DNA of 44,677 nucleotides. It comes from Thermoplasmatota archaeon. Its GTDB lineage: Archaea > Thermoplasmatota > Penumbrarchaeia > Penumbrarchaeales > Penumbrarchaeaceae. The stretch spans positions 1 through 44,677 of the forward strand of contig JARVGK010000024.1 in assembly GCA_029762535.1 (NCBI GenBank). Reading direction: 5' to 3'. The notes beneath the pieces are model-generated. The model was not told where the DNA came from. It did no database searches and saw only the letters and a program-made list of their open reading frames with translations. Shown in pieces: positions 1-19,914 of this stretch (position 1 is the first letter of the stretch; every line of letters starts with the position of its first letter). The position numbers were made by a program, and so were the translations under genes.

Positions 1-77
1 ACGCTCCACCTCGGATTGTTTACCAAGTGTTTCGTCGTAGTTGAAGGCTCGGAGGTCCCCGACGAACTTGAAGTTCA
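1..77. repeat. Perfect 77-bp direct repeat, copy 1 (copy 2 at 4760-4836)
   Basis: Base-by-base identity from ACGCTCCACC to GAAGTTCA; first mismatch at 78/4837. Confidence 0.95.
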
Positions 78-2049
78 GTTTGACCTTGCCGATCTCCTCG
101 GAGGACGTGAACACTATGTGGGCGATCTTTATGGTGGTCTCGAGCTCCACTGGGAACTCCACCGTCATGTTCAGAGTGAACTTCACCCAGATCTCGATGA
201 TCATCGAGGATTCAACGAAGTCGTAGCTGATGTTGAGCCGGGACATGTCCATGTGCATAACGTTCAGCGGATCGCTGATCTTTTTCACTCCTTCATCCGG
301 GGTATACTCGTACTCCGCCGAATAGAACCCGATGTTGAACTTGAATGTCACGGATTCGGTGGCGGTGGGGTCCCATCTGTTGATGACGCTCGCCTTCATA
401 CCGTAATACCGGTACTCCCCGTAGAAGGTCTTCCCGTCGGGCAGGTCCCCGGACAATACCTCCACTGGTCCGGGCTCGACCATGTTGAAGGGCGTGACGC
501 CGAACACCGCTCCCGCTGAGTATTTATTCCCGGGATTGTACATCGAGTCCGATATGAAGATCTCCTCGAGCCCGTCGCCGTCCCGGTCCCAGAACTGTAG
601 CTGCCCGTAGTTCGGATAATAATAGTAATAGTAGAAGGAATAGTACCCCGGACCTCCCCATGATTGGGAACCGCCGGATGGACCTTTTATGATCAACGTC
701 GAGATCTCCTCCACGTCGTGGGGGCCCTTGGTGTTGTTGAAGTCATCGTGTAGTATCACATAGACCTTCTTGGGGTTGGAGCACCCTATCATGAGGTCGA
801 GCTTGCCGTCCCCGTCGTAATCGCCCAGAGTGTGGGATCCGAAGTATGCGTTGTAATAGTAAACGGTCCCAGTTATCGCCGATGTGTAGAAAGCGTTGTC
901 GTACACGCTCGACTGGTACAGGTTCAGGGATCCCGTACTGAAAGAGGTCTTACCATTGACTATGTATACCCAACCTTTCTGATAGGCCGGGGCGCCTATG
1001 AAGAGGTCCGCAAGGCCGTCCCCGTTGTAGTCCTGTACGTTGACGGGGTAGCCGCCCGCGTACGATCCAGTCAATTTGAACAGCTGCCACTGGGCGTAGG
1101 AGCTCGTTGACCCAGCCGTCAAATACGAGATGCTTCTAATGCTGGATTCTGGATAGAATACTATGGCCGGGGACCCGCTCTGGTATGGGGTGGCGAAGAC
1201 CACCTCGTCCTGCCCGTCGCCGTTCATATCCCCCGTGCTCACACCGCTGCCGCCTATGTAAAGGCTGTATATCTCGAGGTCCCTGGTGGAGTGAGCTTTC
1301 GACCCGTTGAGGTCGCTGGCGCCGTACCATATGAAGGCCCTGTGGTTGCCGGGAGCGCACAGGATGACGTCATCGTAGCCGTCGCCGTCGATATCCCCTA
1401 TACCGGTGCCCTTTCCCATATAGTTCCCTGATGTCGTATGTCTGAAGCTAACGTCCGCGTTCTGGAGTGGGACCGATGACCGGCTATTCCAGTGCGGCCC
1501 TCCGTAGAACAGGTATCCATGACCATACTGGTAGTAAGCGGAGCCAACGAGGATGTCGTCGTATCCGTCTCCGTTGACATCGCCCACGGCGATGTCGGTA
1601 CCGAAGTAGTAATTATCGTAATCTCCGCCGAAGTTGATGTTCCACCGAGCAGAGCTCGATGTGCTCTGAAGGTCCGGGAACATCACCTGGGTCGCCCCGT
1701 CGAAAACCACGACGGACTGCCCGTAGAAGTACGGTCTCGTTACCGCGAGGTCCAGCACTCCGTCGCCATTCAGGTCGAGCTTGAGCATCTTGGCCCCGAA
1801 GTACTCGTACATGTTGCCCTCGATCAGGAACTCGGCCGGGTTCTCGCTGAGATCGTGCTCGCCCTCCCTCTGCCCGGGCTTAAGGGCGGTTGGCTGGAGT
1901 TCCATGATCTGGGGGCCTGTCCCATCGGCCTCCGATATCGCCGGGACGCCGACGATGGCCACGAAGGCCATGGCGACCATCATAAGGATCGTCATGCCGC
2001 ATACTAATCTCTTGTTACGAGTTCCTGCCTCATACGGTAAAATATCCAT
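1..2049 (-). CDS. FG-GAP (integrin-alpha-like beta-propeller) secreted/surface protein, paralog 1; 3' end lies outside the window
   Basis: Manually translated, 683 open codons from ATG at 2049: MDILPYEAGTRNKRLVCGMTILMMVAMAFVAIVGVPAISEA... SD GAGGTGGT lies at 2054-2061. It has seven DxxxDG loops (DLNGDGVLD, DVNGDGYDD, DIDGDGYDD, DMNGDGQDE, DYNGDGLAD, DYDGDGKLD, DRDGDGLEE) and is colinear with 2477..6826. It is absent from the ORF track because no stop lies in the window. Confidence 0.93.
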   Translation of the reverse strand, partial: MDILPYEAGTRNKRLVCGMTILMMVAMAFVAIVGVPAISEADGTGPQIMELQPTALKPGQREGEHDLSENPAEFLIEGNMYEYFGAKMLKLDLNGDGVLDLAVTRPYFYGQSVVVFDGATQVMFPDLQSTSSSARWNINFGGDYDNYYFGTDIAVGDVNGDGYDDILVGSAYYQYGHGYLFYGGPHWNSRSSVPLQNADVSFRHTTSGNYMGKGTGIGDIDGDGYDDVILCAPGNHRAFIWYGASDLNGSKAHSTRDLEIYSLYIGGSGVSTGDMNGDGQDEVVFATPYQSGSPAIVFYPESSIRSISYLTAGSTSSYAQWQLFKLTGSYAGGYPVNVQDYNGDGLADLFIGAPAYQKGWVYIVNGKTSFSTGSLNLYQSSVYDNAFYTSAITGTVYYYNAYFGSHTLGDYDGDGKLDLMIGCSNPKKVYVILHDDFNNTKGPHDVEEISTLIIKGPSGGSQSWGGPGYYSFYYYYYYPNYGQLQFWDRDGDGLEEIFISDSMYNPGNKYSAGAVFGVTPFNMVEPGPVEVLSGDLPDGKTFYGEYRYYGMKASVINRWDPTATESVTFKFNIGFYSAEYEYTPDEGVKKISDPLNVMHMDMSRLNISYDFVESSMIIEIWVKFTLNMTVEFPVELETTIKIAHIVFTSSEEIGKVKLNFKFVGDLRAFNYDETLGKQSEVER
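1964..2006. repeat. 43-bp near-perfect direct repeat in signal-peptide coding DNA, copy 1 (copy 2 at 6735-6777)
   Basis: AAGGCCATGGCGACCATCATAAGGATCGTCATGCC(G/A)CATACTA, 42/43 identical. Confidence 0.92.
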
Positions 2050-2110
2050 CTATACCACCTCTATCAGGTATCGAGAATTGCTTTTTTGCCCTTGCGTTGA
2101 AGATACTTAC

Positions 2111-2126
2111 TATTATATAAAAGTTT
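2111..2126 (-). promoter_or_regulatory. Putative BRE/TATA promoter of FG-GAP paralog 1
   Basis: Minus strand reads AAACTTTTATATAATA about 60 nt upstream of the ATG; resembles AAACTTTTAAATA upstream of rps19e. Confidence 0.6.
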
Positions 2127-2476
2127 ATTGTGATGGGCTTTTTCCTCTCTTTATAATTTCCGGAAGCCAGGTTTTTTATCAGGACCCAAGGGTTCCGTGT
2201 CTTCGTTGGAGAAAAAGGCCATGTTCTATTCCTTTTTCCGAAACGGTCACAGAAGGAGAACACGGACATATCCGTGTGAGTTAAATCCAAGCGAATGACC
2301 TCAACTCGTCCTTTTACCTATCGACCAACCGGTTCATGCAAGATATGGCAACTATACCTTCTCGGATCGCTCGCCCAAGATCACATCATGTGCCCTATTA
2401 CAAGAAGCCTAAATGGCTCTACAATATGCCTCACCCTTGGCGATATGGATGCTATGTTTCGATCCAACCATAATAA

Positions 2477-5400
2477 TTATCGACCACCGGACGGGGTATT
2501 GACGTTTGCGTTATCAACAACCGGCTGGGAGGGGGCCGGAGCGGCCACCCAACCCTCGGCTGGGGCCGGGGATACGGGCTGGGCGGTCATGGGAGCCGCA
2601 ACGGGCTCCGCTGCCGGAAGGTCCGATCCCCCGGGCTCGGCCGATGGAAGAGCGAGAGTGGCCTTTCCCTCAGACGCGGCCTTGAGCGCCTGAAGTTTCT
2701 GGTTGCCTCCGCCCTCGAGAAGCTGCTGCACCCGAAGCTCCTCCTCCTGGGCCGCCTTGACACCCTCCTCATCGACCTTCCTCTTCATCGCCATGGAGTT
2801 GGCTGTGAGGATGACGATAAGGAGTATCATAACAACTATGGCCAGGACGATCAGGACAACAAGAAGGATATCCAGAGTGTCCTTGGCCCCGGATCCCTCC
2901 CCCACATAACGCGGGAAGTCCAAAGGATCGGTGGGGTTCGTTCCCTGAAGATACTCCTCGAAGTCGGTATATCCGTCCCCGTCGAAGTCGTTGGCCTCGG
3001 TCACCTGGACCAGCCTATTGGAATACTGGTCCTTGACCATCGTCCAAACCTCATCCTTGCTCTTGCCCTCCATTGAGGAGGTGTAGGTCGGATCACCGTT
3101 CGAGGGATCGTCCCAGCCAAGGTTGTAGATGTACTCGAAGAGATTGGGCATGCCGTCACCGTCAGTGTCCTCATCGGAAAGCCAGATCGGAATTATCCTG
3201 GCTACGACCTCCACATTCACCGGTCCGAACTCCACAGTGTGTATGCCGTCGGACACACTCACAGTGATCGCATGAGAGCCCGGCTCCAATATCTGATCGA
3301 ACCTCGAGGGGTCGGACAAACCTTCTCCAAGCATCTTCTCGGTGGTCTCGCCATCGACAGTATGGAGATCGATCCATGAGAACGTCAGAGCATCACCGTC
3401 CATGTCCCGGGTCATCCGAGCATCGAAGCGAATGGATGTGCCCTCAAGGACCTCAAGACCGTCCTCGGGAGAGGAGACCACGGGGGCCGGAGCGGTGTTG
3501 ATAAGGATGTTGTACGCCTGAGAGTAGCTCGTCGGGTTCCCGGCCATGTCCCTGGCCCTGAACTGCAGGTAGTTCCTGTCACCCTGGGCGAACTCGATCC
3601 CGGGAAGGGTCACCAGACCCTCGGAGGTGATGGCCAAAGAACCCCTGCCCATCCACTCAGCCGTCTCCAGATCGGCCCTGCCTCCAGTGGAAATGCGGTA
3701 TTCCACGGTAAAGGGATCCACGCCCGAGTACATGTCGACGGCCTCGAAGGTCGCCACGACATTACCGTCAGGGATCCATATGCCCTCCCAGGCTTCCTCA
3801 CCGTTGAGCCTCAAGTTCTCGTAAACGACGCCGGATACGTCGACCTTCACCGTTACGGGATCGCTCTCGCCGGAGTTCCCCGCCTCATCCGTGGCCCTGA
3901 ACTTGACCATATTGTCCGATCCTTCAATAAGAACGGGATTGATGAGCGCATCAAGGTCCTTGGCGTTGAGCATCATACCCGCACTGGACCAGGGGGACCA
4001 GGTCACGCCGGCGTCCAGGGATACCGAGTATTCAACGGTCGCGCCCACGACGAACCTTCCACCTATGTCAGTGATAGTGTAGCCCACGTCCGGTGTGAAG
4101 GTGTTGTGCCATGTGTCGGATGAGGGAACGGGATTCGTGAAGGCGACGCCCTCCTTCTCGACGAGTATCGTTCCATATCCCCAGGGTCCGATGTGACCGA
4201 CCCTGTCGAGAGCACGTATCCCTACGGTGATGAGCCCGGAGGAGGGGGTCGTCACCTTGATGAAATTGTTCGTGGTGGTAAGGGTCTCGTCCACCCCGGT
4301 CACCTCCACCTCGTAATGGGATATGCCGCTGTTGTATTCGGCCGGTACCGTCCAGGTCACGTAGAGCGTCCCATCGTTGTCCACGATGGTGTTCTCATCG
4401 GTGAAGCTGTTGGACCGGACCCTGATCCCCGAGGGCGCGCTCGGGGTGTCCACATCTATATTGACGTAGAAGCCGGGTATAGAATTGAGAACCAACGTCG
4501 ATGTGAGCCCGACCTGTCTGAACTGATACTCGACCGTTAGAGGCAGGTCCCCTCCGTGCATGATTAGCTCGAAGTTCCTTCCCGAGGACGAATCGTCGAC
4601 GACCTCCTCGTTCAGCGAGCTCGTCCCGACGATACTGAAGAGATGGTTCCCCGGGGAATACGGTTCTACACCGTGATCTTTGAGGAAGTTCTCGGTGCCG
4701 TTATAGACGAGGCGCGGACCTTCGAACATTATCAGCTGCCCGTCTATGAACCAGTCACCACGCTCCACCTCGGATTGTTTACCAAGTGTTTCGTCGTAGT
4801 TGAAGGCTCGGAGGTCCCCGACGAACTTGAAGTTCAACTTCACCACGCCTATCCCCTGAGATGAAGAGAATACTATATGAGCGGCCTTTATGGTTGTTTC
4901 GAGCTCTATGGGGAACTCCACCGTCATGTTAAGCGTGAACTTCACCCAGAACTCGATGATCATCGAGGATTCAACGAGATCGTAGCTGATATTGAGCCTG
5001 GACAGGTCCATATGCATGATGTTCAGGGGGTCCGATACCTTTCTCATCCCCTCATCCGGTGTCCACTCGAAAGCGGCCGCATAGAATCCCATCTTGAACC
5101 TGAACCCTATGAACTCGGTCGCTTTTGGATCCCATTTGTTGATGACGCTTGCTTTCAGACCATAATAGCGGTATTCCCCATAGAATGTCCTCCCATCTGG
5201 GAGATCTCCAGACATTATCTCAATAGGACCTGGGGTTATCATGTCATATGATGTGATCCCATATATCACACCCGCTGAATAATCAGAACCATCAGTGCGC
5301 TGGTAATCGGAAACGAATATCTCCTCGGTCCCATCACCGTCCCGGTCCCAGAAGATCAAGGGTCTTTGTCCGCAGTAGTAATAGTAATATGCGGCATAAT

Positions 5401-6826
5401 ATCCAGGTCCCGCGAAATATGCCGTGCTTCCGCTCGGGGCTTTGATAGTGAGGGTCGAGACCTCCGTAAGGTCGTGCAATCCTGTGTTGGTCGTAAGGAA
5501 ATCGCCCAGGACCAGATACACTCTGCCAGGGTTTGAGCATCCGATGATCATATCTTTAAATCCATCCCCGTCGTAATCACCGAACGCATGGGTCCCAAAT
5601 GCCCCTGGGGCATATGCTCCAGATGTGACCTCCGAAGAATGGAACGCCAGATCATAAACTTGATTGATGTTGAAGGTCCCCGTATTGAAACTGGATTTCC
5701 CAAAAATGATATAGACTTTCGGAGGTGATATTCCTGGTGAGATCAAGGTGAGATCAGCTTTTCCATCCCCGTCTATATCCTCCAATGAAGCTTGATAACC
5801 ATGAGGATACGAACCCCCGCTATTGTCAGAAAATGTCTGCCATCTGATATAACTGGTCGTGGTGCCCACTGTAGCACTTGATATGCTACGTATCGAAGAT
5901 GTTGGATACATCACGTATGTCCTCTGTCCATAAGGTGATGCAAAAGCAACATCATCCCTGCCATCACCATCGAAATCCCCTGTGGACATACCCTTGCCAC
6001 CAATGTAGCTACCTCCGGTAAGGTATAGATCGCGATCATTGTAGCTGATCAGGCCGCTGAACCTCGTGCTTGATCCATAGAAAATATACACTCTGTTGTA
6101 ATATGGAATTGGGGCGATGATATCTTTGTAACCATCACCATCAATATCACCAAGACCAACGGATTGCCCGATATTATAGGTGGTGCTGGATTCGGTACTT
6201 CTGATCTTGGCATCCTCATCCCCATCGCCCAATCTCGAGCGGTTGTTCCAGTGGGAACCACCGTAGAAGATGTAGACATGGCCATAATAGTTGTATGTGG
6301 ATCCGGTGTATTCATACTGGTATTGCGACCCTATCACCAGATCATCTACCCCATCACCATCTATATCGCCCACATCGATACCGGATCCGAAATAATAGTT
6401 CATGCTTGGATAGTAATCTATCACCCATCTAGCATCGCCGGATTTCGGGTTCAGGTCCGGATACATGACCTGTGTGGCTCCGTCGAATATCAGAACCCTA
6501 CCCCGATAATGTCCTGTAGCGATAAGGTCGAGATGACCATCGTTGTTGATATCCGCTTTCAGCATATGCTGGCCAAAGAAATTATAGCTCTCGCCTTTTA
6601 TCATATATTCGGGAGGGTTTTGGCTTAGGTCATGCTCTCCTGTTCTCTGTCCAGGTCTGACAGCTGCAGGTTTGTGGTCAAGTGTCCCGATCGTTTCAGC
6701 CTCCGAGACCGCCGGTACACTGACGATCGCGACAAAGGCCATGGCGACCATCATAAGGATCGTCATGCCACATACTATCTCCTTGCTACCAACTCCATTT
6801 TTATACTTCAAACTCCCCATGAACAT
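2477..6826 (-). CDS. Large membrane-anchored FG-GAP beta-propeller surface protein, paralog 2: propeller, Ig/FnIII/PKD-like stalk, DxDGDG Ca-binding repeats, TM, Pro/Ala-rich tail
   Basis: 1449 aa with signal peptide and seven DxxxDG loops. FnIII-like segment (PSAPSGI..VTWTVP..SGISHYEV..VRALDRVGHIG-like), DTDGDGMPNLFEY and DFDGDGYTDFEEYLQGTNP repeats, TM ILLVVLIVLAIVVMILLIVIL. SD spacing suggests the true start may be ATG at 6820. Confidence 0.93.
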   Translation of the reverse strand: MFMGSLKYKNGVGSKEIVCGMTILMMVAMAFVAIVSVPAVSEAETIGTLDHKPAAVRPGQRTGEHDLSQNPPEYMIKGESYNFFGQHMLKADINNDGHLDLIATGHYRGRVLIFDGATQVMYPDLNPKSGDARWVIDYYPSMNYYFGSGIDVGDIDGDGVDDLVIGSQYQYEYTGSTYNYYGHVYIFYGGSHWNNRSRLGDGDEDAKIRSTESSTTYNIGQSVGLGDIDGDGYKDIIAPIPYYNRVYIFYGSSTRFSGLISYNDRDLYLTGGSYIGGKGMSTGDFDGDGRDDVAFASPYGQRTYVMYPTSSIRSISSATVGTTTSYIRWQTFSDNSGGSYPHGYQASLEDIDGDGKADLTLISPGISPPKVYIIFGKSSFNTGTFNINQVYDLAFHSSEVTSGAYAPGAFGTHAFGDYDGDGFKDMIIGCSNPGRVYLVLGDFLTTNTGLHDLTEVSTLTIKAPSGSTAYFAGPGYYAAYYYYYCGQRPLIFWDRDGDGTEEIFVSDYQRTDGSDYSAGVIYGITSYDMITPGPIEIMSGDLPDGRTFYGEYRYYGLKASVINKWDPKATEFIGFRFKMGFYAAAFEWTPDEGMRKVSDPLNIMHMDLSRLNISYDLVESSMIIEFWVKFTLNMTVEFPIELETTIKAAHIVFSSSQGIGVVKLNFKFVGDLRAFNYDETLGKQSEVERGDWFIDGQLIMFEGPRLVYNGTENFLKDHGVEPYSPGNHLFSIVGTSSLNEEVVDDSSSGRNFELIMHGGDLPLTVEYQFRQVGLTSTLVLNSIPGFYVNIDVDTPSAPSGIRVRSNSFTDENTIVDNDGTLYVTWTVPAEYNSGISHYEVEVTGVDETLTTTNNFIKVTTPSSGLITVGIRALDRVGHIGPWGYGTILVEKEGVAFTNPVPSSDTWHNTFTPDVGYTITDIGGRFVVGATVEYSVSLDAGVTWSPWSSAGMMLNAKDLDALINPVLIEGSDNMVKFRATDEAGNSGESDPVTVKVDVSGVVYENLRLNGEEAWEGIWIPDGNVVATFEAVDMYSGVDPFTVEYRISTGGRADLETAEWMGRGSLAITSEGLVTLPGIEFAQGDRNYLQFRARDMAGNPTSYSQAYNILINTAPAPVVSSPEDGLEVLEGTSIRFDARMTRDMDGDALTFSWIDLHTVDGETTEKMLGEGLSDPSRFDQILEPGSHAITVSVSDGIHTVEFGPVNVEVVARIIPIWLSDEDTDGDGMPNLFEYIYNLGWDDPSNGDPTYTSSMEGKSKDEVWTMVKDQYSNRLVQVTEANDFDGDGYTDFEEYLQGTNPTDPLDFPRYVGEGSGAKDTLDILLVVLIVLAIVVMILLIVILTANSMAMKRKVDEEGVKAAQEEELRVQQLLEGGGNQKLQALKAASEGKATLALPSAEPGGSDLPAAEPVAAPMTAQPVSPAPAEGWVAAPAPSQPVVDNANVNTPSGGR
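4760..4836. repeat. Perfect 77-bp direct repeat, copy 2
   Basis: Identical to 1-77. Confidence 0.95.
6735..6777. repeat. 43-bp near-perfect direct repeat, copy 2
   Basis: 42/43 identical to 1964-2006. Confidence 0.92.
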
Positions 6827-6913
6827 CGCCTCTGTTTTCCGAGATCGGCATTACTGCCAGGCCTCAATTATCACAGAACGATTATTACTACCTTTTGAGA
6901 CGCCGCTTTACCC

Positions 6914-6926
6914 ATTAATAAAGGTT
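6914..6926 (-). promoter_or_regulatory. Putative BRE/TATA promoter of FG-GAP paralog 2
   Basis: Minus strand AACCTTTATTAAT about 90 nt upstream of the start. Confidence 0.45.
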
Positions 6927-6979
6927 GTGTTGGACTGGGTTATCCGAATGATCGAATGATCAGGTATCTTCCACTTAAA

Positions 6980-7363
6980 TTATCTCGGATCATGATGAGG
7001 GCCCGAAATCGCATCGATTCGCATCAGTGGATATCCCAATTCCTCGACCCATCCCATGGACGCTTCCACCCGGATCCCCTTGTAGACAATGACGATGGAG
7101 GCGGACAGCATCCGCTCCCCCAGCGACGCGTACCCGAAATGGGAAAGACATCTGGACAGCTCCTCCCTGTCTATAATGACGGATGCTTCCACGACATAAG
7201 GCTGGGATCTCGCGCCCATCTCGATGGCCTGCTCCAGATGTGAGGCGGACCTCTCGCTGACTGGGGATCCCACGTACTGATGGAATATGGACCCGAGCTT
7301 TATCCCGGCCTCGAAGGCGGCCCTGTCCCTGTCGGTGCATCGGAAGTACCTCTCCGTCCTCAA
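6980..7363 (-). CDS. mptD: Archaeal dihydroneopterin aldolase, MptD family
   Basis: TDRDRAAFEAGIKLGSIFHQYVGSPVS...LEQAIE...QPYV...LGYPLMRI matches the family. A TTG start at 7363 overlaps the pssA stop (TTGA) with GGGGAGATGA upstream. The longer 243-aa track ORF is an upstream shadow extension. Confidence 0.85.
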   Translation of the reverse strand: MRTERYFRCTDRDRAAFEAGIKLGSIFHQYVGSPVSERSASHLEQAIEMGARSQPYVVEASVIIDREELSRCLSHFGYASLGERMLSASIVIVYKGIRVEASMGWVEELGYPLMRIDAISGPHHDPR

Positions 7364-8349
7364 GTGGTCATCTCCCCGTTCTCCTCCTCGTCCAGGGACA
7401 GCTCCCCGGCCAGCTCCATCTCCTCGAGCTCCTCCTCCATGCGCTTCGCGGCGCCCCAGACCCCGTCCCCACCGGCGGTGAGGGGGGAGAGCAGATATGC
7501 CGCAGAGCCGAACGCCCCCAGGAGGCATCCGGCGAGTCCGATGTGAGGTGAGAAATGCCCGGCGATGAGCGAAGCGATCAGAACCAGTGTGAGGACCCCG
7601 AGGAAGATCATCGAAGCACCCCTCATCCGCTTGTAACGAACGTCCGCCACCATAGCAAGGGCGCCGAAGGTCAGTATCCCAGGTACGGAGTAGGACGCCA
7701 TGACCTCCCACCCCCCTGTGAGCATGCCAGCTTCGGCCGACCAGTGATAGAGTCCGCAGAACGAGACGGCCATGAAGGCCATCGCAGGGGTTGGCAGTCC
7801 AATGAAATCTGGGAACCGGTAGCCCCGCGTGCTGAACCTGCCGAGCCTGAGTATCCCAAGAATGGATATGGAAAGCGACGCGACTACGGTAAGGACATAC
7901 TGAAGGGTGCTTTCCAGGCCTCCGTTCCCGGCCCCCTTGAACAGATTGTATAGCATGAACGCCGGAGCGATGCAGAAAGTGGTGGCGTCAGCTATAGAAT
8001 CGAGCCACTTTCCGAACCTATGAGGTGTGCCGAACCTCCTCGCCACCGGGCCGTCCAATCCGTCGAACATTATTCCTAGCAGTATCAGGACCAGCGCCGT
8101 CTTGAATGCGTCACCGCCCTCTATGGAATACATTATCGCACCCATGCCGCAGAGGAAGTTCATCAATGTCAGAACATCCGCAGGGGATATGAGGGACCTG
8201 ATGGGTTTGGGGACCAACGGCTTCCTCGGGCCCCGTCTCCTGCGGATCAGCCTTCTCCTGGAGCCGTCCTTGTGCAGGTACAGGTTGCTGGGGCTCAGCT
8301 TTCGAGGACGACCCCTGTCGTCAACGAATATACCGCGAATCCTGCTCAT
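7360..8349 (-). CDS. pssA: CDP-alcohol phosphatidyltransferase, likely archaetidylserine synthase
   Basis: Signature FDGLDGPVARR...FGKWLDSIADATTFCIAPA, plus ILRLGRF, FIGLPTP and multiple TMs. ATG 8349 overlaps the psd stop (ATGA). Confidence 0.88.
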   Translation of the reverse strand: MSRIRGIFVDDRGRPRKLSPSNLYLHKDGSRRRLIRRRRGPRKPLVPKPIRSLISPADVLTLMNFLCGMGAIMYSIEGGDAFKTALVLILLGIMFDGLDGPVARRFGTPHRFGKWLDSIADATTFCIAPAFMLYNLFKGAGNGGLESTLQYVLTVVASLSISILGILRLGRFSTRGYRFPDFIGLPTPAMAFMAVSFCGLYHWSAEAGMLTGGWEVMASYSVPGILTFGALAMVADVRYKRMRGASMIFLGVLTLVLIASLIAGHFSPHIGLAGCLLGAFGSAAYLLSPLTAGGDGVWGAAKRMEEELEEMELAGELSLDEEENGEMTT

Positions 8350-8972
8350 CTCATCGGCCTCCCCGAGGCTATGACCGATGAACCAGCCCTCAGCCTGTCG
8401 CCCTCGGAAACGATCAAGCCGTAACCAGGAGGTAGGTCGAACTCGAGATCGACCCTGGACCCGAAGCGGATCATTCCTATCCTGCCCCCGCGCTCTACAT
8501 GATCTCCCGGTTCGAGATAGGGCACGATGCGCCTGGCGACCGTTCCTGCTATCTGGGTGACCTTCATCCTGCCGTGACGGGTCTCCAGGGCGAGGACCAC
8601 CCTCTCGTTCCTGTCCGAATCCTTCCTGAACGCGGGGATGAAACCGCCCGGTATGTGCGTTACGCTCGAGACCCTGCCCGCCTCTGGCGCTCTGTTCACG
8701 TGAACGTTGTGGACGTTCATGAAAATGTTCACCCTGCACCTTCTTCCCCTTTGAGTGGCCAGCACCACCCTGCCATCGGCCGGGGAGACGATCCCAACAC
8801 CAATCCGTCTGGGGGGATCCCTGAAGAAGGATAGGATCGCGAGGCTGAACATTATCCACAGCAGCGTGGGAACGGCCCAAAGGGTGCCTTTGGTGATCAT
8901 CCACAGCAATGCCGTTACCACAGCAGGTGCCGGCACCGCGATCATCCAGACGGGAGTTCCCTTCGCAAGCAG
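8346..8972 (-). CDS. psd: Phosphatidylserine/archaetidylserine decarboxylase proenzyme
   Basis: Motifs FFRDPPR, VSPADGRV, IFMNVHNVHVNRAP, NER, QIAG and the GMIRFGSRVD self-cleavage site. Start is either ATG 8945 or CTG 8972 (SD GGGGTGA). Confidence 0.9.
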   Translation of the reverse strand: MLAKGTPVWMIAVPAPAVVTALLWMITKGTLWAVPTLLWIMFSLAILSFFRDPPRRIGVGIVSPADGRVVLATQRGRRCRVNIFMNVHNVHVNRAPEAGRVSSVTHIPGGFIPAFRKDSDRNERVVLALETRHGRMKVTQIAGTVARRIVPYLEPGDHVERGGRIGMIRFGSRVDLEFDLPPGYGLIVSEGDRLRAGSSVIASGRPMR

Positions 8973-9032
8973 TCTTTCACCCCGTTACAACGCTGTCGGG
9001 GATGGGGCGGGGGCGATTTTAAACTATCCCCG

Positions 9033-12000
9033 TTACGGATCGTCCTCCGCTTCGGTCCGATGGACCCTCTCACCGATAACAACACCATTTCCGGTCCTTT
9101 TCCTGACGATGAGATAAACATATCCGAAGGATACGATCGATCCCAAAAGGATCGCCAGCGCCGCGATCCATATCGGCGCGGCGATCGTCTCCCGTTCGCC
9201 TCCGGACGTGCGGTACTCCGGCGTTTCGTATCCTTCTTCCACCGTGAAGGATATCCTGAGGACCTCCGAATAGATGCCTCTCCGGTCGCTGGACCTGACC
9301 TCGACGAAATGCTCCGGTCCGGGTTCCGACCCGGACGGGTCGAGGAGGTATTCCCAATCGGGAGCTGACCATGCGGTCATCCAGGGGCCCAAGCCCTTCC
9401 TCACCTCGACGACGTTGACGGTCCCGACCGGACCCGAACTGCCCTTCAAGAGGACAGGCCCTGTCAAATTATCAAGACTAACAGAACGGTCCCAGCTGAC
9501 CCAAAGCTCTTCCCGTTCGGGCTCGAGGACCGTCATCGTTCCCGTGTCCGGATCGCTCCATATCCCCGAAGTGTCCCTGACCCTGAACTCGATGACGTGG
9601 CTGCCGGCCGAGAGGTCATCCGCCTCGAAGGATGACCTCCTCGATAGCATCCCGTCGATGTTGGACCTCCATTCGTAAGCGATGATGCCTCTTTCGGGGC
9701 CGGGTATGCCGTATCCATCGAACCGGACCATGTCTCCCTGGACCGCTTCAGAAGGATCGATCGAGGATATGACCGCTGTGGGCATGTTCTCCTCGCGGAC
9801 GATCTGTATGCTGAGTATCGATTCGTTCTCGGACATGGTCCCGCCCGCGTCCATCACCTCGAGGCTAACCTCGTACTCGCCGGGGGAGGAATATGAATGT
9901 GCCACGGTTGGCATGCTCTGCCAGGTGGTCTCCGTCCCATCGCCTAGATCGAACCTGTATGAGAGTATGGAACCGGAAGGTGAATAAGATCCCTCCCCGG
10001 AGAATACCATGCTCTCTCCCACTACCCCTCTCTCCGGCCCGGTCAGTATCGCCATGGGAGGGCCTTCCGATCCCATTCTGAACGAGTCGTGAACAAGAGA
10101 GCCCGGCCTGGGGTAAGCTCCGGTGATAAATACGGACACCAGATCATCCGTTTCGAATGGCCTGTCCTCCTCGACAATGTCTATAGAGACCACCGTGGAG
10201 CTTCCAGGCGCTATTTTTTCGCCCGATACGGAGGACATAGCCTTCAAACCGTATCTCTCGACCAAGGCCAGGACCCAATATTCCCTGAGGGTGTGGTCCG
10301 AAGGGTTAGATATCTCCGCGGTCAGGGTCAATGTACCATCTGAAAAGGAGTGCTCAAGGATCTCTATATCGTAATCGATGGGCTCATCCGGTTCGAACAG
10401 GCGGATGTGGGACCCCTTCTCGACATCGGTCAGAGTTGACTCCCGGCCCATTGGCCACAGGACCTTCAGCTCTATGGATCCCTCGACATTTCCGAGGCCG
10501 ATGTGCTGGACCATGGCATCCTGCTGTCCGTGCGCTCCCGATCCGGCACTTATCTCGCGTATCATGGACCTGTCGATGGTCCCGTCACGGTCATCGTCGA
10601 TATCGACAGTCAGGCGTGCCCCTATGGCCGCGGAGTTGGACTCCCTGCCTATGAGGGTGACCTTGAGGAATGAATTCTCCGAGGTTGATGATCCCCCGTT
10701 GTTCCTGAAAAGGTGTATGGATGAATGGACCGTGCTCCCGGATTCCGGATCCCAGTTGCCCCCTCCGGTGACCAGGTCGATCCAGCCGTCGTTGTCGTAA
10801 TCGCACCATGCCGATCCGTAAGTGTTCCACACCTTCAGGCCGGTCTCGTCCGTAACGTCGGTGAAGCGGAACCCGCCGTCGTTCCGGTAGAGCTGCGAAT
10901 GGGCATAAGATATATCCCCGTATATCTGGGGCAGGAAAAGGTCGAGGTCGCCGTCGTTGTCGTAATCCGCCATGGCGCATGATACGAAGAGCTCGTCCCC
11001 GCCTCCTATGGCACCCGGGATGCTCTTTACAGGGATCCCGCTGCCTTCCCTCCTGTCGACAAAAGCCCACCCACCTTCCTCGCCCAGGTTCTCGAACAGG
11101 TAGGAGTCATCGCAGATCGGACCCCGCCAGGGGTCCTTGTGGGCGAGGTTGGTCACCCAGAGATCGAGGTCCCCGTCGTTGTCGAGGTCCCCCCAGCATG
11201 CCCCGACCGAGTGTCCGTAATAAGGCCCCTCGCGGGTTACTGGATGATGGCTCTCGTGACCATCGACGCCAAGCTCCGCGGCCGCCTCCTCCATCTCGCC
11301 GTAAACGTTCCTGTAGAGGTAATTGGGCATTATTCTGTAGTTCGACACGTACAGGTCGGGCCACATGTCGTTATCGAAATCCGCGAAGCTCGCCCCCCTG
11401 CCCTGGTAAGGGTGGCCTCCCTCCGACATCCCCGACATCACCGTCCAGTTGCTGAACGTACCGTCCCCGTTGTTGAGCCAGAAGTGGTCCCGATAACCCT
11501 GGTATGTACCGTTCTCGTAATTCACCATGTACAGGTCGACGTATCCGTCCCTGTCCACGTCGCTCCACGCCCCGGCGACGGTGGGGAACGTGTCGGAGAG
11601 GTTCCCCGCCTCGAACGTCACGTCCCTGAACGTCCCATCGCCCATGTTCCTCCAGAGTATGTCCGGGTGAGTGGGGTGGTCCGACGAACCGGACCCCCCT
11701 CCGCAGAAGATGTCCAGCCACCCGTCGTTGTCGTGATCCGCGAATACCCCGCTGTTGACCTGTCCTCCGATCCGAGCCCTCTGAGTAACGTCCGTGAAAG
11801 TATGATCGGGAGGACCGCTGTTCCTGAAGAGTAGCTTGCCGTCCACCAGCAGGTCCTGGTAGCCGTCGTTGTCGTAGTCACCCCAGGAAAAGAAGTTGCC
11901 CCTGTAACCGGAGAGGCCGGCCTCCAGGGAAACGTTGGTGAAGGTCACGGGGGAGGCCCTCGAGGGCGGCACGGGATCATACACGGCTGCCCCTATCAGG

Positions 12001-12068
12001 CATGAAAAGGCCGGGTACAGAAGCGTTAGCAGCAGCAGTCCCGACACGGCCCAGCTCGAAGCCTTCAT
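9033..12068 (-). CDS. CRTAC1/ASPIC-UnbV-family FG-GAP repeat protein with PKD domains and C-terminal TM anchor
   Basis: Repeated DYDNDGxxDL and LxRNxG-xxF-xDVT blades. UnbV segment SNSAAIGARL..ISAGSG..HIGLG..VLWP. PKD YRFDLGDG..HSYSSPGEYEVSLEV. TM followed by RKR. Confidence 0.88.
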   Translation of the reverse strand: MKASSWAVSGLLLLTLLYPAFSCLIGAAVYDPVPPSRASPVTFTNVSLEAGLSGYRGNFFSWGDYDNDGYQDLLVDGKLLFRNSGPPDHTFTDVTQRARIGGQVNSGVFADHDNDGWLDIFCGGGSGSSDHPTHPDILWRNMGDGTFRDVTFEAGNLSDTFPTVAGAWSDVDRDGYVDLYMVNYENGTYQGYRDHFWLNNGDGTFSNWTVMSGMSEGGHPYQGRGASFADFDNDMWPDLYVSNYRIMPNYLYRNVYGEMEEAAAELGVDGHESHHPVTREGPYYGHSVGACWGDLDNDGDLDLWVTNLAHKDPWRGPICDDSYLFENLGEEGGWAFVDRREGSGIPVKSIPGAIGGGDELFVSCAMADYDNDGDLDLFLPQIYGDISYAHSQLYRNDGGFRFTDVTDETGLKVWNTYGSAWCDYDNDGWIDLVTGGGNWDPESGSTVHSSIHLFRNNGGSSTSENSFLKVTLIGRESNSAAIGARLTVDIDDDRDGTIDRSMIREISAGSGAHGQQDAMVQHIGLGNVEGSIELKVLWPMGRESTLTDVEKGSHIRLFEPDEPIDYDIEILEHSFSDGTLTLTAEISNPSDHTLREYWVLALVERYGLKAMSSVSGEKIAPGSSTVVSIDIVEEDRPFETDDLVSVFITGAYPRPGSLVHDSFRMGSEGPPMAILTGPERGVVGESMVFSGEGSYSPSGSILSYRFDLGDGTETTWQSMPTVAHSYSSPGEYEVSLEVMDAGGTMSENESILSIQIVREENMPTAVISSIDPSEAVQGDMVRFDGYGIPGPERGIIAYEWRSNIDGMLSRRSSFEADDLSAGSHVIEFRVRDTSGIWSDPDTGTMTVLEPEREELWVSWDRSVSLDNLTGPVLLKGSSGPVGTVNVVEVRKGLGPWMTAWSAPDWEYLLDPSGSEPGPEHFVEVRSSDRRGIYSEVLRISFTVEEGYETPEYRTSGGERETIAAPIWIAALAILLGSIVSFGYVYLIVRKRTGNGVVIGERVHRTEAEDDP

Positions 12069-12124
12069 GTTGCGATCCCCGAAGCTAATGGATATCTGGA
12101 ATGATTAGTGTTTCCATCGGCAGC

Positions 12125-15100
12125 TCACTCGAGTATTGCCGGGTCCGCCGGCTCAATTTCGATCGGAGCGGGTATCACAGGATCCCCCATCTGGGGCGGT
12201 TCCAGCTCGGGCGGGTCCTCGATCGCTATCGTTGGGCCCTCCTCATCGGGCATCGGCAGGTTTGGCGGAGACCCTTCATCCTGGGACGGGTCCTCCGTCA
12301 CGGCCTCCAACTCCTCCCCGGAGGCGACCGGAGGGGCTTCGAATCCTGGGTCGATCGGCGACGGGAGCCTGCGGACCTTTCTCCTCATCACCAAAGATGA
12401 TACGATGACGGCGCAGAGAAGGAGGACCATAACGAATAGGAAAACATGGGATGTAATTAAACCCATTATGCCCTTAGGGCTCTCTTCTTCAACAAGGATG
12501 GTCCTTTCCTCGGACAGGGACATCTCCCCGTCATCGTCGATCACGACAAGACCGACCACATAGCGACCGGGCCGCTCGAAGAAGACGGTATGGTTCCTCT
12601 CCTTACCCTCGTGGACCGCGGCACCGTCGATCATCCATCTGAAGGTCAGGGAACGGTTGTCGGAGGGCGTGTCGCTGCTGAGATGGCCGATAAGATCCAC
12701 CCCCTGGCCGACCCTCACCCGTTCGGGGATCTGCCCGAGACGGGATACGGGGGGCAGGTTGATGATCTCCATGACATGAGTGGAGCTGCCGCTCGCCCCC
12801 TGATCGTCGATGGCGATCACCGAGATGACGTAGCTGCCCGACCCGGGGAAGCTGATGTTCAGATCGCGCCCGGTGATCTCCAAAGGATCGCCGTCGAGCG
12901 TCCACCGGACGGTCAGGATCGGATCGTCGGATGGGGTGTCGGCCCCCTCCATCAGGCTGAGGGGAACGACCTCGTCCTCGATCGCGGAGGCGGGGCCGGA
13001 TATTTTAGGGACAGGGACCGCGTTGACTATCACCACCGAACGCTCTATGATGTCCAGATCGCCGTCGTCATCGGTTACGATCAGCTTCACCGTATGCTTT
13101 CCAGGCTTGGAAAAGCTTACCGAAAAGACGATGCCGGTCCCGTCGATGCTCCCGTCGGCGCCCACGTCCCACTCGTATATGAGGGATGCCAAGTCCGAAG
13201 GAGTGTCCCTGCTCGCGGAAGCGTTCAGGATGATGATCTGGTCCTCGTAGGCGAAATCGGGCATGGTGAGATCGGCGATCGGAGGTGAATTGACGATCTC
13301 TATCTCATGGAAGGCCATGCTGCTGGCCTCATCGTCATCGATGACCTCGAGGGATATGTTGTGAACGCCGCTCTTTTCAAAGTGGACATAGAGGCTGTCG
13401 CTCTCTCCGATAACGCTCCATGTCCTGGTGTGCCTCCAGATGTATCTAAGGGTTGGAAGGTCAGAGGGGGAGTCGATCGCAGCGGACGTGAAGTGGACCT
13501 TCTCATCTTCCAGGGCCGTGTTCGGACCGGTGATGCGAATCCTCGGGATCTCGTTGAACACGAGTATCTCGGCCGAAGCATTGGACACTGCGCCTTTCGG
13601 ATCCCTCACGCTGACCGACAACGTGTGAGAGCCCGATCCGGGTATGGACAGGTTCAGAACTGGGGAGGGTCCCCAGTCCATGACGATCGAACCGTCGAGA
13701 ATGAACGAATACCGCAGGTCGAACAGGTCGGGGACGGTATCGCTGCTCTCGGAGGCGTCAACGGTGAAGACCTCGTCCTCCATTACCGCGGAAGGGGCCC
13801 TCAAGAAGGCCGACGGGGGCTTGTTGTGGACCATGATAGGGACGACAGCGGTGGTGTTGATGAGCCCGTCCCCGACCTTCAGATGCAGGGTCCTGGGCCC
13901 CTCATCGTACCATGTCATCTCCACGTAAGGCTCGGTGGAATCGGAATAATCCAGCCCGTCATCCTCATCGAGGTCCCAGGCGAAGCTGAGAACGTCCCCA
14001 TCAGGATCGTATGAGGAGGAGGCGTCGATGACCGCTTTGATCCCTTCGTATATCATATCGGGGTCTATATTGACGATAATCATCGGGGCCCTGTTCAGGA
14101 CCTTCATCTGCGACCTGGCCCTCAAAAGGCCTTTTTCGGCCTCGATGATGTGAACGCCCGGAGCCAGGTCCTTGAACATCACGATCCCGCTAGGACCGGT
14201 CCTCGACCCGGGGAGGCCGGGTATCGAGACGAGAACGTCCTCCATCGGCGTCAGGTTGCCGTCGGAGGGATCGAACATCCCAATTCGGAGGTCGTCGTGA
14301 ATTCCGTCCCCGTCATCGGCGACCATCTCGGCGACGATGCGCATCCTCTCCTTCGGATCCGCCCTCTCCCTGAGCATCTCGTCCCAGTACGTATCGGCCG
14401 TGAAGGTGAGATACCCTGTATGGCCGTCGTAGTCGGGGTTGTAGAACGAGCGGTGGGGGAAGTATATGGACATGCCCGTGGCGTAGGGATTCCTGCCTCC
14501 GGGGACGTGGTATTCGGCCAGTATCGTGCGGTTGTATGTCTCGAGAGCTGCCTTGGCGAGGACCGGTATGTCCCCGGGCAGGTCGGACAGGGATATCTTC
14601 AAGAGGAGGTCTCCAAGGTCGAGTTGGAAGGACGCGACCCCCTCGACCCCCTTCACTACTTTCTCTAGCTGAAGATCGTTCAGGGCCTGGATGTCGTACA
14701 TCCACCCCCATAGCTCCATGGAAAGCGCGTCCAGGTCATCGATCAGATCGCTGCCCATCAACGTTAGGTTGGACGCCGCGAAAGTGGAATATGGATAATA
14801 TTCGGGGTTGGAGTATTCCGATGCGAAGGATGAGACGATACTCGAGGCCAATTCCCCCGGATCGAGCGAGCCCTCCCCGCCCATTTCCGCCACGAAGGAG
14901 TAGTTCAATCCGTAGAAGGGCTGCTCGTCCTCTCCCGCCAATCCTATCAGGGCCCAATCGCTAACCTGATGCAACACCTCAACGGTCCCCATGGAACAGG
15001 CATCGAAAGTGATGATGTCGATCCCGAACGATCCCAGGGCCACCTCCGCTTCAGATAAGGCCATTCTCAGCCCTTTAAGGTTCATCATCCCTCCGTCAGT

Positions 15101-15631
15101 CACGTCCTGGGCGAATCCCCTGGTCGGGGCATCGGGCCCGGCCTGCATCGCCGTCCAACCCGAGCCGTGATCCCATATGACGAGCATCACATGTTCGGCA
15201 TCGCTCCTATTCATTGAATAGACCAGGAAATCCCTGAGCGCCCTCCAATCGGAGGAGCGTATCTCATCCGTCCAAGTGGAGTTGACCTCGCTCAGGGGTA
15301 TCCTGTCGGACCCCAGGCCCGGAGAAGGATGATTCTTTATATCGAACAGGACCGTGTTCCCGTCGCCTTTCATGTCAGATAGAACGAGCGCTCTCACACC
15401 AGATGAGGGGAAGACCGATTCCAGCTCCTCAAGGTCCATCCATGCGGCGTTCCCGTAGGTCCCGTTCTCCCCCAGGGTATTGTCGGCCGCCATGTATATC
15501 ATCAGGAGCCATCGGTCCTTTTCGCCAGCAGGCTCCTGTCCGGTGCGCTCCCCCTCCCCGCCATGGACGTGGATCACCATGATGAGCGAGATCAAAGCTA
15601 TGGCCACCAGTTGATGCGAACGCCTACTCAT
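12125..15631 (-). CDS. Membrane-anchored clostripain-family (C11) cysteine peptidase with about six PKD-like repeats
   Basis: WLLMIYMAADNTL, VIWDHGSGW (catalytic His), FDACSMG (catalytic Cys), GMSIYFP. Repeats of NxxP..SSDTPSD..W..GxHxVxLxVxDDDG, then a TM and an acidic/Pro-rich tail. Confidence 0.88.
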   Translation of the reverse strand: MSRRSHQLVAIALISLIMVIHVHGGEGERTGQEPAGEKDRWLLMIYMAADNTLGENGTYGNAAWMDLEELESVFPSSGVRALVLSDMKGDGNTVLFDIKNHPSPGLGSDRIPLSEVNSTWTDEIRSSDWRALRDFLVYSMNRSDAEHVMLVIWDHGSGWTAMQAGPDAPTRGFAQDVTDGGMMNLKGLRMALSEAEVALGSFGIDIITFDACSMGTVEVLHQVSDWALIGLAGEDEQPFYGLNYSFVAEMGGEGSLDPGELASSIVSSFASEYSNPEYYPYSTFAASNLTLMGSDLIDDLDALSMELWGWMYDIQALNDLQLEKVVKGVEGVASFQLDLGDLLLKISLSDLPGDIPVLAKAALETYNRTILAEYHVPGGRNPYATGMSIYFPHRSFYNPDYDGHTGYLTFTADTYWDEMLRERADPKERMRIVAEMVADDGDGIHDDLRIGMFDPSDGNLTPMEDVLVSIPGLPGSRTGPSGIVMFKDLAPGVHIIEAEKGLLRARSQMKVLNRAPMIIVNIDPDMIYEGIKAVIDASSSYDPDGDVLSFAWDLDEDDGLDYSDSTEPYVEMTWYDEGPRTLHLKVGDGLINTTAVVPIMVHNKPPSAFLRAPSAVMEDEVFTVDASESSDTVPDLFDLRYSFILDGSIVMDWGPSPVLNLSIPGSGSHTLSVSVRDPKGAVSNASAEILVFNEIPRIRITGPNTALEDEKVHFTSAAIDSPSDLPTLRYIWRHTRTWSVIGESDSLYVHFEKSGVHNISLEVIDDDEASSMAFHEIEIVNSPPIADLTMPDFAYEDQIIILNASASRDTPSDLASLIYEWDVGADGSIDGTGIVFSVSFSKPGKHTVKLIVTDDDGDLDIIERSVVIVNAVPVPKISGPASAIEDEVVPLSLMEGADTPSDDPILTVRWTLDGDPLEITGRDLNISFPGSGSYVISVIAIDDQGASGSSTHVMEIINLPPVSRLGQIPERVRVGQGVDLIGHLSSDTPSDNRSLTFRWMIDGAAVHEGKERNHTVFFERPGRYVVGLVVIDDDGEMSLSEERTILVEEESPKGIMGLITSHVFLFVMVLLLCAVIVSSLVMRRKVRRLPSPIDPGFEAPPVASGEELEAVTEDPSQDEGSPPNLPMPDEEGPTIAIEDPPELEPPQMGDPVIPAPIEIEPADPAILE

Positions 15632-18530: not shown

Positions 18531-19914
18531 ACATCACGACCGATAGGGCGATCTTGAGAAGTGGGTTCAACGCCGAGATCCCCTCGACGGTCGAGTAGGT
18601 GCCGAAACAAAGGCCGGTGTTGGATATCGTCGTGACGATGAGGGACATCACGGAGAATATGTCCCCGCCCTCGAAAGCGAGAATGATCAGGGCGGTGATG
18701 GCGATGGTCAGGACCATGATCGCGAACGCCGACCCTGCCGATTCCAGAGAACGCCCCGAGTACGTGCCTTCTCCCCTCTTCAGGGTGAGGACCAGCCCTG
18801 GGTGTGCGGTCTTTTTCACCTCTCCTTTCAAGGCGGAGCCGAGGAAAAGGAGCCGTTGTACCTTGAAACCAGAAGCCACCGACAGCGAGGACCCTCCAAT
18901 GAGCATGAGCAGAAGGAGAGCCATCTTCGCAGGGTCTGGAAACGAGGCGATCCCCTCAAGAGATGTCCCGGTAGTGGTCATGGAGGATATGGATGCGAAC
19001 GCCCCCTTCCATATGGATTCCCCTAAAGGCATGCCCGATAATAGAAGGATGGCTCCGATCACGAGCGGTGATGCTACCACCATGGACAGATATATCAGGT
19101 TCTCGGGATCGAGCAACGTCCTTCTCCTGTTCCTCGCCGAGAGCAGACTCAGATGGACGTGATATCCCATACCTGACCAGATCATGAATGCCATGATGAG
19201 AAGGTGCAGCCCCGGTCCCGCGTTCAACACGATCCCCGTGGATGAGTAACCTCCAGTCGATACGATGGACATGGAAATGCAGATCGAATCGTAAACCGAC
19301 TGTCCGGTTATCCTGAGGAACAGCATTAGAACGATCGTGAAGAGCGAATAGACCACGGTAAGGTTGTATAGAAGGTTCGAAAGCGTGGGGACCAATCCCA
19401 TGCGGACGAATATCCTACGCTCGGCGCTCCTCTTTGCCATATCGCTTATCTCGGAAAGTACCCTGAACGCCGTCACGAGATAGAACAATCCCCCGAACCA
19501 CTGGATCGCCACCCTGTAGAACAGCATTCCCGCTCCTGCCCCCATGAAGACCTCGGGGCCGTGTCCGGAGAGCCCCGTCGTCGTGAATCCCGCAAAGGAC
19601 TCGAAAAGGGACCCTGCCAGACCGAAGGTCCCGGACAATAGAAAGGGAAAGGAACCGATTATGGCCATGTAAAGGAACGATAGCATTCCTTCGAACAGGT
19701 CGAACGTCCTTTCCTGAGCGGACCTCCTTCTCAGGAGGAAGGAGGAGAGGTACAGCAGCGCGGATATGGCCAATGGTACGGCTAAAGGCAGGATGTTGCG
19801 GATGGTGATATCCCCGAATATGAGATCGACCAGCAGCGCTGATGCGAAAAGCAAAGATAGTGGCAGATTGATCCTGATAACCGAAAGCATTATCCTGGTC
19901 CGGTCCAAATCCAT
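18430..19914 (-). CDS. trkH: Trk potassium uptake membrane subunit
   Basis: Four pore motifs FTTTGLS, VSTGGYS, MTTTGTS and ISNTGL, plus MFIGRFE. Start ATG 19914 lies just after the trkA stop. Confidence 0.9.
   Translation of the reverse strand: MDLDRTRIMLSVIRINLPLSLLFASALLVDLIFGDITIRNILPLAVPLAISALLYLSSFLLRRRSAQERTFDLFEGMLSFLYMAIIGSFPFLLSGTFGLAGSLFESFAGFTTTGLSGHGPEVFMGAGAGMLFYRVAIQWFGGLFYLVTAFRVLSEISDMAKRSAERRIFVRMGLVPTLSNLLYNLTVVYSLFTIVLMLFLRITGQSVYDSICISMSIVSTGGYSSTGIVLNAGPGLHLLIMAFMIWSGMGYHVHLSLLSARNRRRTLLDPENLIYLSMVVASPLVIGAILLLSGMPLGESIWKGAFASISSMTTTGTSLEGIASFPDPAKMALLLLMLIGGSSLSVASGFKVQRLLFLGSALKGEVKKTAHPGLVLTLKRGEGTYSGRSLESAGSAFAIMVLTIAITALIILAFEGGDIFSVMSLIVTTISNTGLCFGTYSTVEGISALNPLLKIALSVVMFIGRFELLLPLHLLAYRAYSFSYRSRSILRRRG

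Follow-up and report, generated by a model that had tools for sequence, protein, structure and literature searches.

Two adjacent genes at one end of a contig from a sediment archaeon of the Thermoplasmatota raise the question of how neighbouring copies of a surface protein come to carry strongly diverged ligand-facing heads on a stalk whose DNA is identical at the edge of the assembled sequence. The window analysed was the whole of this contig (C19; JARVGK010000024.1 of assembly GCA_029762535.1; 44 677 nt), one of the 102 contigs of a bin (G000) of 2.96 Mb. The genes, called A and B here, lie in tandem in the same orientation (minus strand) with an offset of 4759 nt. We consider it likely that their mosaic similarity arose by repeated ectopic gene conversion between long-coexisting tandem paralogs that affected only signal peptide, thigh-like domain and stalk, a mechanism argued here from similarity profiles and trees.

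Both genes encode membrane-anchored surface proteins with an integrin-alpha-like headpiece on a long immunoglobulin (Ig)-like stalk, and each has its own start codon and its own signal peptide. The complete gene B encodes, in order, a signal peptide, an FG-GAP propeller, a thigh-like domain, an Ig-like/fn3-like stalk, a TSP3 repeat, one transmembrane helix and a cytoplasmic tail. The FG-GAP family of Pfam was matched by A (4e-33) and by B (1e-25). An AlphaFold model of A (predicted local distance difference test, pLDDT, 81) was compared with the PDB using Foldseek, and every one of the top 50 matches was an integrin alpha headpiece (E about 1e-14; ~700 aligned columns over propeller and thigh); judged by this model, the label 'integrin-alpha-like' appears fair for A at the level of the fold. 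The likeness to integrin alpha chains (alphaV, alpha5 and alpha4; PDB 8xfg, 7nwl and 3v4v) lies in the succession of FG-GAP propeller, thigh-like sandwich, Ig-like leg, single transmembrane helix and tail, whereas sequence identity is 11–15%, TM-scores are only 0.3–0.45 and the stalk includes TSP3 and other domains; beyond the propeller, homology is putative. Integrin-type propellers have been described in prokaryotes (PMC3192720). The parts of the two genes that were compared are as follows.

1–2049, minus strand: 5′ part of gene A, 683 codons, cut by the contig end; signal peptide, FG-GAP beta-propeller and thigh-like beta-sandwich.
2477–6826, minus strand: gene B, complete, 1449 aa.
1–77, unstranded: terminal 77-mer, identical to 4760–4836, with the first mismatch at 78/4837; a k = 77 graph overlap into the A/B repeat.
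78–440, minus strand: thigh-like domain of A, intermediate, with 72–90% nucleotide identity and a synonymous divergence (dS) of 0.45–1.3 relative to B.
1964–2006 (A) and 6735–6777 (B), minus strand: signal-peptide cores, identical at 42 of 43 nt.
4837–6734, minus strand: headpiece of B (propeller and most of the thigh-like domain), a deep branch, with dS relative to A saturated and a GC content at third codon positions (GC3) of about 0.49.

The sliding dS profile of A against B was saturated across the heads, where the propellers shared about 60% of nucleotides and about 50% of amino acids and differed by indels, fell to 0.45–1.3 over 78–440 and was 0 in the last 25 codons (1–77). The block ending at 77/4836, the 42/43-nt patch, the intermediate region at 78–440 and the diverged propellers had all been described in an earlier sequence-only reading of the window, and every one of these coordinates and identities was confirmed. 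The similar patch at the 5′ end covers ~85 nt of coding sequence and begins at the start codon; four codons of the match between 1964–2006 and 6735–6777 are ATG, which makes it less striking. Homogenisation of the promoters was looked for between A and B and none was found, the two being separate and dissimilar. Identical codons were counted at conserved degenerate residues, with Fisher tests on synonymous codon identity. The head had 74 identical codons out of 237, compared with 17/24 at the N-terminus (p = 2e-4), 29/45 in the distal thigh-like part (p = 4e-5) and 25/26 at the edge (p = 5e-11). The regions of A and B thus differ in synonymous divergence and in codon identity beyond chance, as expected of a mosaic and not of an evenly aged duplication. 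Nor can purifying selection explain the anchors on either side of the propeller, since, across nine orthologues of related genera, conservation was lowest in the signal peptide (4–29% amino acid identity) and the thigh-like domain (26–34%), yet these are the parts in which A and B were most similar (86% and 77–81%, respectively).

A protein search with A returned P0003 (1442 aa), with 90–91% amino acid identity over all 683 residues. P0003 is encoded on a 62.9-kb contig of a close relative, where it is the single A-type gene at the site, and A is its resident orthologue. Trees were built that included A, B, P0003 and P0005, a protein from a third lineage. In the head tree, A grouped with P0003 (100/100) on tips of 0.04 and 0.07, and B stood on a branch of 0.47, as deep as P0005. 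In the stalk tree, B grouped with P0003 (100/100) at a path of 0.18, with P0005 outside. The two trees are incongruent, and B is accordingly chimeric, with an old head joined to a stalk of the A type. The thigh-like domain of B was 77% identical to that of A and 80% to that of P0003 at the amino acid level, compared with 95% between A and P0003; as B is about equidistant from the two, this layer predates the split of the two organisms. Three layers can thus be told apart: the head is old, the signal peptide and thigh-like domain are of intermediate age, and the stalk is recent. They fit repeated conversion, spread over a long period, that never crossed the propeller. The sequence-only reading had proposed that a simple, evenly eroded duplication does not describe this locus and that heads and stalks should be placed in separate trees; the dS profile, the codon tests and the incongruence of those trees bear out a recombination mosaic.

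The earlier reading had also noted that perfect identity began abruptly and persisted to the edge of the window. The identity of 1–77 with 4760–4836 stood, but its length and its stop at the edge are a product of the assembler. Position 1 of the window is a contig end, and for each of the 204 contig ends in the bin we determined how long a terminal word is found again at another place in the assembly. The longest such word was exactly 77 nt at 45 of the 204 ends and longer at only 3, a regularity that identifies an assembler k of 77 in a de Bruijn graph, with the contig broken where the assembler could not resolve a repeat. Both the size of the perfect block and its reach to the window edge are set by the assembler. 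Within the assembly the 77-mer has just two occurrences, at positions 1 and 4760 of C19, and no other contig ends on it, so that beyond the edge A follows the graph path of the B stalk. Contig-end overlaps of the SPAdes type at k = 77 have the same appearance, a fixed-length exact terminal word recurring across the ends of an assembly. Unlike a meaningless k-mer overlap, the word here marks a real repeat between A and B, whose extent (~2.3 kb) can be deduced from a second contig and from the relative. The 77-bp identity can in a sense be called the collapsed-repeat artefact against which the sequence-only reading had warned, but collapse itself implies real identity between the copies.

The second contig, C46, carries the 3′ end of A. 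Its left end matched C19 2551–2488 at 61 of 64 positions, with nucleotides 1–50 exact to C19 2551–2502, and its first 78 nt encode, in frame, the last 26 codons of a B-like protein that departs from B 8 codons before the stop. The resulting tail (NTTSDNPPI at the C-terminus) resembles that of P0003 (NTVSDNPPV) and not that of B (NTPSGGR). The next gene on C46 is an orthologue (40–42%) of the gene that follows the orthologues of B in two relatives (G005 and G013). A tblastn search of B against the whole bin found no second close stalk, the remaining matches being 25–29% identical. Gene A is therefore probably made up of C19 2049–1, ~2208 nt collapsed onto C19 4759–2552, and C46 1–78, as judged from these sequence joins, and its predicted length of 683 + 736 + 26 = 1445 aa compares with 1442 aa for P0003. 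The following tract is probably common to both genes; 77 + 50 nt of its identity are directly visible, and identity over the full length would follow from the collapse.

2502–4836, minus strand: putative tract shared by A and B, about 2335 nt (about 2.3 kb), of which 2552–4759 would be collapsed and represent both copies.

The order of genes in the close relative is phosphatidylserine decarboxylase, CDP-alcohol phosphatidyltransferase, dihydroneopterin aldolase (DHNA), P0003, a gene for a protein of 1145 aa, GTPase, OapB, OapC, HHH and CARDB/FG-GAP. Of these, the first three correspond to the genes that lie upstream of B on C19, and from the 1145-aa gene onward the order is that of C46, save for OapB, which is absent among the open reading frames (ORFs) scanned on C46. 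The 3′ end of the DHNA gene (7008–7116) is 90% identical to the relative's copy. The sequences flanking A and B are as follows.

2050–2173, minus strand: ancestral promoter region of A; together with the first 30 nt of the A coding sequence (2020–2173) it matches the sequence upstream of P0003 at 92% identity.
2174–2476, minus strand: 3′ flank of B, GC about 0.43, for which neither the relative's locus nor the sequence downstream of A has a counterpart.
6827–6979, minus strand: region upstream of B, with a weak, degenerate likeness to the A-type promoter.
6980–7366, minus strand: DHNA gene, 5′ end approximate; conserved upstream neighbour.

The possibility that the A locus was simply and recently duplicated in tandem was considered and rejected, as the 3′ flank of B is unrelated to the flanks of A and its 5′ flank is only faintly like the A promoter. 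B is either an old resident paralog that was lost in the relative or an import, and the intermediate thigh layer favours the old resident. No closer relative of the B head was found among 5.8 billion proteins, the best match being 48% identical. An exact look-up of B gave no record, and a 41-nt word specific to the A junction had no match in collections of metagenome or genome contigs; these searches turned up no further assembly of the population. The nearest named relatives of the locus are Thermoplasmatota metagenome-assembled genomes (MAGs); the search for related loci otherwise gave mostly generic FG-GAP proteins.

The base composition of the genes was recorded separately. GC3 was 0.49 in the B head (4837–6826), 0.76 in the A head (1–2049) and 0.75 in the B stalk (2477–4836), and the switch within B coincides with the rise in similarity to A. 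Most orthologues, and P0005, also have a lower GC3 in the head than in the stalk, A and P0003 being the exceptions; GC-biased conversion of stalks is a possible cause. The GC3 of 0.49 had been tried as decisive proof that the B head is foreign, and was rejected as such because the heads of orthologues and of P0005 likewise lie below their stalks.

Similar arrangements were found elsewhere in the family. In the relative G004, on a single contig of 167 kb, two adjacent genes differ in their heads by a dS of at least 1.4 but are then exactly identical over 2151 nt, up to ~33 nt before the stop codon, a pair that closely parallels the structure proposed for A and B.

G004 contig C2 (32000–50000), positions 6905–9055 and 10477–12627: identical tracts in adjacent family members.

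Another relative (G009) has four tandem paralogs whose C-terminal parts are 96–98% identical. The bin studied here contains a second broken stalk, in which contig C68 (1133 nt) is joined by 77-mers to C53 on one side and to alternative 3′ ends, C65 and C67, on the other; this arrangement points to another paralog pair with a collapsed identical stalk. A more distant genus has tandem arrays of 8 paralogs (G034:C1 140000–176000) and of 5 (G030:C103 20000–43000), whose heads are 5–30% identical within a genome and 85–89% identical between orthologues. Stalks in these two genomes are about 70–80% identical in every comparison, with within-genome and between-genome values equal (about 72%), and it is the heads that are better conserved between orthologues. 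Taken together, these cases suggest that homogenisation of the stalk recurs in this Thermoplasmatota family but is not universal, and that heads are not shuffled in G030 and G034.

Under the reading that we favour, B would be a second copy beside the resident A, with a much older head. Conversion between the two would have recurred, overwriting signal peptide and thigh-like domain and, in its latest round, the entire stalk, with a tract ~2.3 kb long that ends ~25 nt before the stop codon. The propellers would never have been homogenised, either through selection for two binding specificities or because ~40% nucleotide divergence halted heteroduplex extension. The identical or nearly identical stalks would then have been collapsed by the short-read assembler, the contig stopping inside the repeat after a single k-mer (77 nt) and the remainder of A being left on C46.

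Other histories would produce a chimeric B. It could be a xenologue: imported with its own flanks from some unsampled lineage related to this one, it would have entered between the A promoter and the DHNA gene, and its stalk would later have been overwritten by A; an equivalent form has a recent duplicate of A whose headpiece was replaced by foreign DNA through the anchors in signal peptide and stalk. The relative has an A-type gene only, the A promoter is orthologous (92%) and the 3′ flank of B has no match, all as an insertion would predict, and so are the contrast in GC3 between the B head and both the A head and the B stalk, with its switch at the rise in similarity to A, and a head as deep as P0005, as if from another organism. 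Composition is weak evidence, however, since a low-GC3 head on a high-GC3 stalk is usual in the family, and the search of 5.8 billion proteins turned up no donor-like head closer than 48%. The B thigh is far closer to A and P0003 than the B head is, and about equidistant from them, which places exchange before the A/P0003 split with B already resident, and the region upstream of B keeps its faint A-type promoter likeness. We regard import in either form as unlikely. If A and B instead arose by a recent tandem duplication and their heads diverged very fast under selection with no recombination, the grouping of the two heads in one clade relative to other genera would be accounted for, but selection on the protein cannot saturate synonymous sites in the heads and spare those of the thigh and the edge. 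In the trees, moreover, the B head lies outside the pair of A and P0003 and the B stalk inside with P0003, and the B flanks are not copies of the A flanks; we find this history the least credible of the explanations considered.

Two further explanations were weighed. As the sequence comes from a metagenome bin and the contig loops back on its own 77-mer, the tandem might be false: two strains assembled together could each have contributed an allele of a single gene, one with the A head and the other with the B head. Against such a chimera, the unique sequence at 2050–2476 joins the start of A to the stop of B inside the contig, two distinct 3′ tails exist (on C19 and C46), each with a different downstream neighbour, and the relative has orthologous sequence for the A promoter as well as for DHNA, the gene upstream of B; the sole path that uses all pieces of the graph runs C46, stalk, A head, spacer, stalk, B head. 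A chimera is thus very unlikely. The sequence-only reading had suggested a programmed system of head swapping or antigenic variation, in which the anchors flank the head for high-frequency exchange among cassettes or strains. The head is indeed flanked by two DNA patches of raised identity, in the signal peptide and the stalk, and the family shows highly variable heads on conserved stalks in tandem arrays. It is the stalk, however, that moved and was homogenised; no swapped head was seen. There are two heads only, both in complete genes and under promoters that are not shared, and the genome has no silent cassettes: tblastn found no other copy above about 29%, and the search for further heads with both anchors yielded A and B alone, the signal-peptide patch having no match outside the pair. 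The heads of A and P0003 are stable orthologues, as are those of the G030 and G034 arrays (85–89%), which argues against frequent shuffling. Pfam detected no recombinase or reverse transcriptase among the scanned ORFs of at least 150 aa in ~25 kb of C19 and 12.6 kb of C46, in agreement with the earlier observation that no recombinase was in view. We hold programmed swapping to be highly improbable.

Several observations weigh against conversion between long-resident paralogs, or against details of it. The relative has no B and must have lost it if A and B have long coexisted, and the stalks of G030 and G034, being no more alike within than between genomes, show no concerted evolution. At the level of the assembly, C46 reaches 50 nt and not 77 into the repeat; seven other contig ends overlap by 50–66 nt, and either trimming of the end or a variant may be responsible. 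The left boundary of the repeat inside C19 is not marked by a 77-mer at any contig end of the bin, and bubble-popping by the assembler over 2502–4836 could mask a few differences between A and B.

Gene conversion between neighbours is a known process, and A and B reveal no new mechanism. Concerted evolution is known in prokaryotes generally (PMC6053082), and long-lasting conversion restricted to one domain has been reported for the tandem archaeal paralogs mtrA-1 and mtrA-2 (PMC4632066). There, as here, neighbouring archaeal paralogs have one part repeatedly homogenised and another kept distinct, as seen in region-specific trees and similarity profiles. The mtrA genes differ in encoding enzyme subunits whose unconverted part is a non-homologous transmembrane domain, whereas A and B are surface proteins with homologous but diverged ligand-facing heads, and persistence of the A/B pattern was demonstrated within one genus-level lineage only. 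Intragenomic recombination and conversion also act on the babA and babB adhesins of Helicobacter pylori (PMC3444412, PMC4552749). These too are paralogous surface adhesins with a distinct binding region, between which recombination yields chimeras; in this bacterium, however, the loci are dispersed, and their recombination has been documented to alter the phenotype within hosts and to give chimeras that can be observed, whereas A and B are tandem and archaeal and no alternative combinations were seen. In the silent-cassette antigenic variation of Neisseria pilE/pilS and Borrelia vlsE, an exposed variable region is flanked by conserved sequence that can guide recombination. A and B differ in having neither promoterless cassettes nor an array of many donor copies; each of the two genes is complete, and no sign of switching was seen.

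The surroundings of the locus contain further genes of interest. Upstream, at 9033–15631 of the window, lie two more large surface-protein genes, one encoding an FG-GAP/ASPIC/PKD protein (1011 aa) and the other a clostripain-family peptidase with PKD domains (1168 aa); in place of the former the relative has a PKD protein of 435 aa and an ORF of 196 aa. On C46, a short way past the adhesin genes, lies an OapC gene (4876–5610); at the corresponding site (18661–19814) the relative has OapB in addition to OapC. Given these genes for origin-associated proteins, the locus may sit near the replication origin.

The edge block is an example of a biological-looking signal that was shaped by the assembler, which set its length, and that nevertheless marks a real repeat. 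A design of constant stalk and variable head could in principle act as a recombination scaffold, in which identical stalks and conserved DNA of the signal peptide allow whole headpieces to be exchanged between paralogs or strains with no dedicated enzyme. We think this doubtful; were it true, binding specificities would be reshuffled at the level of the population, and B would be an imported or retained head on a locally homogenised stalk. For the family as a whole, the broken stalks suggest that its genes are systematically interrupted or under-counted in short-read MAGs. In A and B themselves we see a well-resolved case of what is likely to be domain-restricted conversion in archaeal surface proteins, by which different ligand-facing heads would be carried on one common stalk.

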